64,000 nt of DNA from Heteronotia binoei. Lineage: Eukaryota. The DNA is taken from assembly GCF_032191835.1 (NCBI RefSeq), contig NC_083223.1:197098001-197162000 (forward strand), in the 5' to 3' direction. Position 1 is the stretch's first letter. The number at the start of each line of letters is the position of its first letter. Both the position numbers and the translations under genes were made by a program. Below are positions 30,480 to 32,585 of the stretch, piece by piece. The notes beneath the pieces were generated by a model. That model was not told where the DNA came from. It was given only the letters and a program-made list of their open reading frames with translations, and made no database searches.

Positions 30480-32585
30480 GAGACTTCTGGGTTACGTCAT
30501 CTTGACCTCAGGGGTGTCTGAAGACCGTCCTCCTGTGGCACCTTTGAATCAGGAGGTTGGAGGGGTGTCACAGATGTGGCGCCCCCATAGGCAAACCCTG
30601 GAGGGGTTTTTCTTTGGCATTGGACTTTTGCGGGAAGCTAGGGGTACAGCAGCAGCTGCTCCTGTGCTTCTTGCATGTCCTGAGGCTCTGCCGCCATGAT
30701 AGCTGGTGCAGCACAAAAAGATGAATGTCCGACTGCTTTCTTTCGCTCCTTTCAGTAAGCTTTTGATGCATCGCCTTTCTACTTCTAGCGTGGCAATTCT
30801 ACTTGGCAAGTAAGTGAGCTTTCAATACCACTGGCTAATGGGTCGTTTTACATAACAACGAGCAGCTAGCTCAAAGGAAGGGATAGAGGCTGATTATAAG
30901 CCTACTTCTCCTGCGAATGAGGCCTCGAAAAGTCAAAGAGCAATCTTAGGTATTGGTAATTACTTGAATTAGATTGAATACAAATGCTTAAATCGACCCG
31001 GATTATAATTGGACATATGTTAAAGAGACTATTATTTGGCTGCAATATGATCTGAACATAAATGAGATATATTCTAGAGAGATCTGTCCCTGCTGTCTGA
31101 CTGCAATTGAAATAACATTTGAAATCTCAGCTGGAGCTGATTTGGAATGACGATTTAACAGGATCTTTAAGCTATTTTTCAACTTGGATTAAGAGACTGA
31201 GTTTATTGACAGAGAAAAATGGCACTGCCAAGCGAAATGTATTATAAAAAAGATATATTATGGAATATTACTTCTCTGAAACAGGATCTTGGCTCATTAA
31301 TGCAGCTGATTAGAAAGCAAATGGGAGCTTTTATGCTGAAAGCTAGCGAACTTTCAAATCTGCATGAGCTGAGTGCTAAAGAGATTCTGGTGACGTCTGC
31401 GGAATTAGAATGGGAAAGTGATCCGTTCCGAAACGAACAAAAGAAAACCAAAATGGATCCTTATGGCGCAGTTACAAAACAAGACCGGAAATCAAGATTG
31501 AGTGAAGTCATGCTGAGAGGAAGAAATGGCACAGAATTCTTCTTCCAATTATTGAGAGGGCAGGCCACATTGAGAAGAGAGAAGGTGCATCCCAGCCAGT
31601 TAATTAAGATGTGGAAATCTTTCAGGAAGAAGGACTCTTGAACTTTTTCCCTCTTTGTGGATAGTTGGATATGGAACTCTCAATAAGAACTGACATGTGA
31701 TTTTAAAAGGCAAAGTGTGGTGTCTGGGTTACACTAAGTTGATTTTCTCTGACGTAATATGGATATAGAAACTAAAGGAATCCAAAAGTTTTTAAATTTT
31801 GGGAAGGATTCCTGAGTTCTGGTTTTTCTTGTGGGTAAACAAATATGGAATTATTAATAATGAATTGTTATGTGATTTTAAAAGACCAAGGGAGATCCTA
31901 AGGAAGGAAGGGTGTTAAAATTTTAGTTAAATATACAGTTAATTTGGATCAGTGCTAAAGAGTGCAGACAACACATTTATTTTTACATAGCAGATTTATT
32001 CTTAGTATGTTTATTTGGTGAAATTGCTCATATTGATATAAGAGTTGGATTAATTGTTAAAAAGGCAGACAGCACAATTATTTTGTAATCTGGTAGATTT
32101 GTTTTTAATATGCTCCTTTGGAGAAACTGTTTATACTGAGATAGACAAATTATTATGTTGTATCTTTTTAATTTGTTAAGGATAAAGATATTATTTTTAT
32201 GTGCTTATTTTAATAAGGATATTGTTAAACCAACAAATTAGTCTGTGCTTTTAACATGGTTAAGCTAAATCAGACAGCTTTGTGTTGAGATGGCTTTGAA
32301 TTTTTTTATATACTTATTTGTGTTCAAGAAGAATTGTTTAGATTTATATTGCTAGTATTAGTTTAGTAAACATTTTCTATAATGAAAGACAAGGATGGTA
32401 AAATATATGGAGAACTTCATACTTGCAGGTAGAATGATCTGGGTATTTTATTTGGAGGTAGAATTATAATTGATATATTCGTACTTTTTTCTGTTTCTGT
32501 TCTTCCCACTCTATAAATGCCCTTTCCCCCCTTTTATGTATCTTATGTAGTTAAAATCAATAAAAATTATAAAAATCACTATAAA
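30480..32585 (+). mobile_element. Unclassified 2.1-kb poly(A) retroposon (L1-type insertion signature), no RT
   Basis: Perfect 20-bp TSD aaaaagaattcagatttatt (30460-30479 and 32586-32605); AATAAA at 32559-32564 followed by A-rich tail; GC-richer 5' end. Confidence 0.85.
31219..31641 (+). CDS. 140-aa ORF of unknown function inside the 2.1-kb retroposon
   Basis: Strong Kozak (aaaATGG); possible short coiled coil (ITSLKQDLGSLMQLIRKQM); no recognised domain. Confidence 0.35.
   Translation: MALPSEMYYKKDILWNITSLKQDLGSLMQLIRKQMGAFMLKASELSNLHELSAKEILVTSAELEWESDPFRNEQKKTKMDPYGAVTKQDRKSRLSEVMLRGRNGTEFFFQLLRGQATLRREKVHPSQLIKMWKSFRKKDS

Follow-up and report, generated by a model that had tools for sequence, protein, structure and literature searches.

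We found that a 2.1-kb element in the DNA analysed here belongs, very probably, to a non-autonomous family of the L1 type that carries a reading frame under selection. We further consider it probable, though far from assured, that the family is a HAL1-like parasite of clade-1 L1 elements, without reverse transcriptase (RT) or endonuclease, and that its selected 140-aa frame would be an eroded ORF1 acting on the element's own RNA.

Structure of the element and its insertion marks

The features below lie in the window, by which we mean the whole 64-kb stretch of DNA that was analysed.

30460..30479, + strand: left target-site duplication, 20 bp, exact
30480..32585, + strand: full-length element, 2,106 bp; full-length matches of 87–93% at other loci, many with duplications of their own
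30480..30504, + strand: 5′ terminal motif of the GACTTCCGG type; same start in the subfamilies examined
30480..30860, + strand: GC-richer, strongly conserved first 380 nt
30696..30758, + strand: 20-codon upstream ORF beginning at GCCGCCATG (sequence and translation)
30807..30815, + strand: splice-donor-like CAA/GTAAGT, retained in most copies
31189..31300, + strand: predicted interrupted stem around the start codon
31219..31641, + strand: 140-aa ORF with predicted heptad helix and basic tail
31629..31890, + strand: old internal duplication (31629-31715 and 31803-31890, 69%) overlapping the ORF end, from self-comparison
31944..32143, + strand: second internal duplication (31944-32040 and 32045-32143, 71%), from self-comparison
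32559..32585, + strand: AATAAA and short A-rich 3′ end, without long poly(A)
32586..32605, + strand: right target-site duplication, 20 bp, exact

The perfect 20-bp duplication described in the initial annotation was recovered as an exact 20-mer with just two occurrences in the window (30460-30479 and 32586-32605), which enclose the 2,106 bp of the element (30480..32585, +). The A-rich target was also found as described, the bottom strand of the left flank reading TTTTT/GT, and AATAAA lies at 32559-32564. The claimed A-tail had to be given up: it is not poly(A), and the terminal run consists of eight A, five of which come from the duplication. GC content was 55–56% over the first 200 nt versus 23–30% over the last 500 nt, in agreement with the GC-richer 5′ end noted before; the two 5′ motifs that had been listed are present (TTACGTCA at 30491-30498 and GCCGCCAT at 30690-30697), and the AT-rich 3′ region, put at ~940 nt, measures 944 nt downstream of the ORF end. 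The single ORF of more than 100 codons between the duplication copies is that at 31219-31641, which encodes 140 aa and has A at −3 and G at +4, as expected of the strong Kozak context assigned to it.

The terminal motif at 30480..30504 is likely the start of an internal Pol II promoter, a function that we infer. Net between-subfamily divergence was ~0.02–0.03 in the first 380 nt versus ~0.10 further on, and the first 250 nt were predicted to be structured (mean fold z −2.9 for the first folded window and −2.0 for the second). Because GCCGCCATG opens the 20-codon upstream ORF (30696-30758), the main ORF is preceded by another in the RNA. The number of 3′ internal repeats varies among subfamilies. 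On the opposite strand, a frame of 75–90 codons with no start codon (window ~30880-31180, −) is open here and in some subfamilies; this antisense frame (~90 codons, upstream of the ORF) had no consistent periodicity across subfamilies and is possibly a product of chance. The copy at 30480-32585 gave no sign of domestication.

Variable target duplications at A-rich sites and 5′ truncation are marks of target-primed reverse transcription by an L1-type enzyme. Duplications of 10–20 bp adjoin both ends in 25 of the 69 copies examined; their first five bases are 54% A (0.54 versus 0.37), and the preceding bases are pyrimidine-rich. Among 30 copies selected by their 3′ motif, six extend no further than 1.1 kb and, judged by length, may be 5′-truncated. 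The family shares with L1-mobilised retroposons both the variable target duplications at A/purine-rich sites and some 5′-truncated copies, and these marks fit the L1-type target-primed reverse transcription that had been proposed for the element. The long poly(A) tail of such retroposons is missing: in the 25 copies with a duplication of at least 10 bp, A runs over tail and duplication together peaked at 4–9. Rfam returned no match at E up to 1, as the small-RNA-derived head of a SINE might have given.

The element lies ~8 kb past the stop of an open frame of 1,206 codons (40619-44239, −), which has Patched/sterol-sensing domains and runs on the opposite strand; this frame is likely the large last exon of a Dispatched-1 gene. 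Elsewhere in the window, the segment 7249-12252 (+) has an RT match at 8530-9225 and a recombinase-like frame (11221-12252) with no Pfam match, and by our reading it is a decayed DIRS-like element with a CR1-like insertion near 10290-11076. The GDSL-esterase ORF1 of a CR1-type LINE occupies 993-1943 (−), and three near-perfect 295-bp tandem copies (2085-3040) adjoin it.

A family of parallel subfamilies

When the element's own genome was searched at the DNA level, 2,497 first-look candidates emerged; of the 40 that were scored, most were near full length at 87–93% identity. Exact counts in the genome were 219 for the start-codon motif (control 0), 270 for a motif near the 5′ end (control 0) and 347 for one at the 3′ end (control 1), and about 40% of sampled copies have the 5′ or 3′ motif exactly. 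When the motif lists for C1 were matched by hand, 34 and 31 places had 13 in common, giving ~80 copies on C1. Because motif retention and this list overlap both point there, we put the family at roughly 600–900 copies, which is a lower bound for diverged subfamilies.

In a tree of 68 copies the internal branches are long and the terminal branches mostly 3–6%. Terminal branches are similarly long in several lineages that differ by up to ~25%; copying thus went on in these lineages in parallel. There are about 12 subfamilies in all, with protein identity down to ~60% and elements of 2.1–2.4 kb; they have in common the start context, both termini and a frame of 140–142 aa (146–167 in two subfamilies), and differ by 3′ duplications and diagnostic changes. 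The family has therefore been amplified independently, as HAL1 has. Very young copies were absent from the sample, near-identical duplicated pairs aside. A 99.95% match with flanks in common proved to be the same insertion duplicated 0.56 Mb away. Such near-identical pairs with common flanks lie ~0.53–0.56 Mb apart on C1 (L002, at G000:C1:196570284-196575393; L102/L103; L149/L150) and reflect either a recent segmental duplication or a haplotype that the assembly contains twice. Nested insertions were also seen: an L1 ORF2 frame of 1,184 codons sits inside one family copy (L250:1254-4800), and further cases (L249, L251, L253 and L118) comprise other retroelements inside copies and one family copy within an L1, between its ORFs.

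The initial annotation had also allowed for a retrocopy of a lineage-specific mRNA. Were the copies repeated retrocopies of one such host mRNA, with the frame mirroring a parent gene, one would expect most of them to approach full length and to have AATAAA and a constant 3′ end, as they do. However, lineages up to ~25% apart were copied in parallel rather than from one gene lineage, as processed pseudogenes would be; the subfamilies succeed one another with diagnostic changes, their 3′ regions are rearranged by subfamily-specific duplications, and the 5′ terminal motif is of the L1 type. A search for an intron-containing parent returned only family copies among the best 150 genome matches, below which a parent could rank. 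We regard this origin as highly improbable.

RNA reads, splicing and RNA structure

RNA reads from six runs map along the element in both orientations; their depth is low, they are mostly 85–95% alike, none falls in the flanks of the window locus, and they show no full-length transcript. This shows that family sequence is present in RNA libraries, not that full elements are transcribed. A splice joining the donor-like site to the start codon was considered and rejected: the junction pattern had three matches in the genome, none of them a family copy, no spliced genomic copy was found, and no RNA joint at the donor-like site was present in the six runs. Gaps over this site in two subfamilies turned out to be alignment artefacts. 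For the start-codon stem, 19 pairs were compatible in 96% of cells over 53 copies, and the stem was predicted in 10 of 11 folded copies; covariation among the 53 copies did not exceed that of shuffles, and RNAalifold did not return this stem. End-to-end pairing of the RNA was predicted in three of the 11 copies and start-to-stop pairing in none.

Purifying selection on the reading frame

We computed dN/dS from pairwise net divergence between subfamilies, without ancestral states. Over 65 copies in nine groups, the net between-subfamily value for the ORF was 0.40 (0.27–0.60), and in the same test the shifted and reverse frames gave 1.05–1.44 and the mirror frame 0.58. Because 40 of the loci in the first set had been picked by protein score, the test was repeated on 107 loci chosen otherwise, of which 85 cover the ORF, 67 are distinct and 61 fall into five groups; the result was 0.39 (0.26–0.57). 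None of 400 column permutations was as low as the ORF (permuted null 0.95), and dN/dS was below 1 in both halves of the ORF. At the level of subfamilies there was no stop in the 140 codons against 13.8 expected, with 12–18 stop-bearing codons in control frames. Shared indels that break the frame numbered zero of one in the ORF, six of ten upstream and six of seven downstream. Changes fixed in subfamilies comprised 81 N, 59 S and no stops, versus 167 N, 41 S and 18 stops among private changes.

Fixed replacements were not more conservative than private ones (mean BLOSUM −0.30 versus −0.35, p 0.39), and the net dN of the ORF, 0.09–0.10, is near the divergence of flanking non-coding sequence. In the fixed-change count two of three upstream frames had a low N/S like that of the ORF, and one upstream control frame was also low in the net test (dN/dS 0.50–0.57, permutation p 0.03). 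Collectively, the ORF was under purifying selection in the source elements, and the constraint was moderate. The possibility raised at the outset that the ORF is not conserved among copies, and the element non-coding, can be set aside: the frame is kept across subfamilies, with no fixed stop. Most individual copies have decayed, 16 of 67 being free of stops and frame-breaking deletions. The window copy has five N and one S private changes, and its intact frame therefore needs no special explanation.

Properties and putative origin of the protein

The absence of RT, endonuclease and any recognisable ORF1 motif, already noted in the first description, was corroborated by Pfam, by six-frame translation and by BLASTX against L1 proteins; a lack of ORF2, RT and endonuclease is likewise a feature of HAL1. 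Pfam gave no match for the window protein, neither to PF02994 or another ORF1 family nor to an RRM or CTD, and over 37 aligned members its best E was 0.004, in six of the 37 and in scattered families. There was no match in a word search of near-length and longer database proteins or in a search among 1.84 billion representative proteins, and Atlas searches with the protein gave no usable match. AlphaFold2 predicted one long helix, confident at about residues 10–50, with nothing reliable past residue 74 (pTM 0.28). A heptad helix was predicted for residues 4–66, followed by a basic tail (residues 71–140) with 19 K/R versus 7 D/E. In 48 proteins nine heptad positions were almost wholly hydrophobic, and exchanges were nearly confined to hydrophobic residues. 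From these predictions the protein may oligomerise through the heptad helix and bind RNA through the basic tail.

The pattern of constraint might also mean that selection acts mainly on the translation of an open frame, by which the RNA would stay ribosome-bound close to nascent L1 ORF2 or be shielded from decay, the peptide itself being of little importance. Stops and frameshifts are indeed purged far more clearly than replacements, which are not conservative and accumulate near the rate of flanking divergence, and the predicted stem around the start codon could be accommodated as well. A dN/dS that lies under all 400 permutations and below 1 in both ORF halves argues against this reading, as do the heptad positions, which swap almost solely among hydrophobic residues, and a length of 140–142 aa in most subfamilies; we judge it unlikely.

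For comparison with L1 elements, 20 stretches were taken by ORF1 family match, and 30 ends and 20 longer stretches by the 5′ motif. The best profile match was to the MSD-type ORF1, at its coiled-coil/RRM boundary motif (residues 85–102 versus 86–103). Similarity to ORF1 was not significant (hhalign E 0.34, profile Smith–Waterman z −0.2, best HMM match E 0.086); a diagonal test of the register gave p 0.016 and was picked after the match was seen. L1 ORF1 and ORF2 profiles built for this analysis gave no significant match. An ORF1 ancestry of the protein is nonetheless suggested, and an eroded L1 ORF1 is its likeliest origin, judging by the weak, non-significant register match to one ORF1 lineage. 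A C-terminal W-K-x-F-R motif was considered as the trace of an ORF1–ORF2 tail fusion and was rejected, having no profile or DNA support.

Relation to L1 elements

The family has the lizard clade-1 L1 motif at its 5′ terminus; the agreement is complete in one subfamily (L089), which reads CTTCCGGGTTATGGCG, close to the clade-1 5′ consensus given in PMC5381506. As described there, clade-1 L1s resemble the family in the terminal GACTTCCGG...ATGGCG motif and long 5′ UTR, and in a T-rich and C-rich 3′ region with AATAAA near the end. They differ in length, ~6.4 kb in that description against 2.1 kb, and the family has no ORF2, no detectable similarity past the first 30 nt and a short A-rich end. 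Past these 30 nt, no DNA similarity to the sampled L1s, a non-exhaustive set, was detected; nor did this set contain an alignable partner LINE for the 5′ and 3′ parts.

Twelve L1 tails bear on the helper. Terminal A runs were 0–11 in MSD-type L1s (five of eight at most 2) and 8–13 in four MGD-type L1s. The MSD-type insertions (L200, L201, L207-L209, L211, L213 and L217) often have little or no poly(A), with 0–2 A in five of the eight. Judged by these 12 tails, the L1 lineage with an ORF1 starting in MSD/MSE, whose own insertions likewise carry little or no poly(A), is the most likely helper.

Two of the 20 stretches at L1 5′ ends were 1.9–2.1-kb deletion products in which the ORF1 coiled coil is joined to the end of ORF2. 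These, L207 (2,097 bp) and L209 (1,871 bp), are single internally deleted MSD-lineage L1s, each with its own target duplications, and the ORF1 boundary motif of L207 continues, without a change of frame, into the final ~90 residues of ORF2. They show a possible route to the element's layout, not that this route was taken. Their presence makes it conceivable that the element is simply a SIDE-like derivative, formed when an extant L1 recently lost internal sequence, and that its ORF is a leftover. But L207 and L209 align to their parent L1s at 66–86%, whereas the element at 30480-32585 aligns to no sampled L1, and the body lacks detectable similarity to them, which, within that sample, speaks against the earlier proviso that it might be an internally deleted known L1. 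Autonomous versions with both ends in common were sought among seven longer-spaced candidates, all of which were nested insertions or duplications. This explanation is very improbable.

Loci with the 3′ motif had no L1 ORF2 upstream of it (0 of 30), and three BLASTX matches at such loci are, by our reading, CR1-derived stretches within the L1 set. Separately, a frame at L214:3787-4230, downstream of a short L1 5′ fragment, resembles what we take to be the N-terminal coiled coil of a proteasome ATPase, and is perhaps a processed pseudogene.

A more serious alternative keeps the same L1-dependent family and supposes that the protein is unrelated to ORF1 and was turned into a cis-acting helper; it could stem from a captured host or transposon fragment or from a frame born in the element, and the terminal promoter motif alone would come from, or converge on, L1. 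The silence of Pfam, of the database proteins and of the 1.84 billion representatives, the lack of a usable Atlas match and the lack of a significant match to the L1 ORF1/ORF2 profiles built here are all as this alternative would have them. Against it stand the N-terminal heptad helix and a boundary-like motif equally far from the start as in MSD-type ORF1; the genome also contains L1 deletion products that equal the element in size and layout, and no donor gene was found among the best 150 genome matches. We give it a minor share of belief as a whole, including its proposed protein sources and its account of the promoter motif. An eroded ORF1 remains our preferred origin.

Discussion

Non-autonomous retroposons are expected to be non-coding, as SINEs are, or to have a recognisable ORF1, as HAL1 does. 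The HAL1-like non-autonomous family first proposed held up, with its several hundred copies, selected ORF and L1-type marks; the novel protein proposed along with it did not fare as well, an eroded ORF1 being the likeliest origin. HAL1 (half-L1) of mammals is described as encoding ORF1p (PMC5753468, PMC13756887, PMC4161310), and in what these sources describe it resembles the lizard family in being non-autonomous, with one ORF, no ORF2, its own amplified family and a presumed use of L1 machinery. The lizard protein differs in its length, 140 aa against 251–341 aa for this genome's ORF1s, and the element in having no RRM/CTD match, no significant ORF1 similarity, no long poly(A) and a host that is likely a lizard, judging by the L1 terminal motif. 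Of the coiled coil, RRM and CTD of ORF1p, a heptad helix alone is predicted, and of the UTR homology to L1 that an origin by ORF2 loss would leave, the terminal motif is common, with nothing further in the non-exhaustive L1 sample. Since the encoded ORF1p is missing, we set the family apart from HAL1 members, although it is HAL1-like in its working. SIDEs such as Persaeus, from CR1 Zenon, are likewise described as short non-autonomous non-LTR derivatives amplified with a partner (PMC6740152); the lizard family differs in that no alignable partner was found and a selected ORF was retained. In L1TD1, a domesticated ORF1, the coiled coil is described as retained and as proposed to interact with ORF1p (PMC4161310); L1TD1 is a host gene, whereas hundreds of mobile copies carry the lizard frame, mostly in a decayed state. 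We found no account in the literature of a family of this kind from lizards; Repbase/Dfam and Bao and Jurka 2010 lay outside our scope, and earlier cataloguing is possible.

In the mechanism that we propose, the family would go back to an L1 that long ago lost internal sequence and has since diverged too far for the relationship to be detected. Pol II would transcribe the element from its conserved 5′ part, and the ORF would be translated into a product that oligomerises through its heptad helix. The basic tail would bind the element's own RNA, which could then be handed over to L1 ORF2 protein, with RT and endonuclease borrowed from clade-1 L1. The benefit would be in cis, because selection acts on scattered source elements.

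We also entertain, as a possibility that we rate well short of probable, an L1 parasite that supplies a small adaptor from its own ORF: a coiled coil with a basic tail, which either has no relation to ORF1p or has lost the RNA-binding folds of ORF1p. With the same reserve, such an adaptor might bind the element RNA in cis and capture L1 ORF2p without a poly(A) tail. If true, this would be a third way to defeat L1 cis preference, beside the ribosome binding of SINEs and the intact ORF1p of HAL1.

A 140-aa frame selected in a dozen parallel lineages without RRM or CTD would bear on the minimal function that a parasite needs for the L1 enzyme, a function testable by one small construct. The family also suggests that squamate repeat libraries may hold protein-coding families beyond homology-based annotation.
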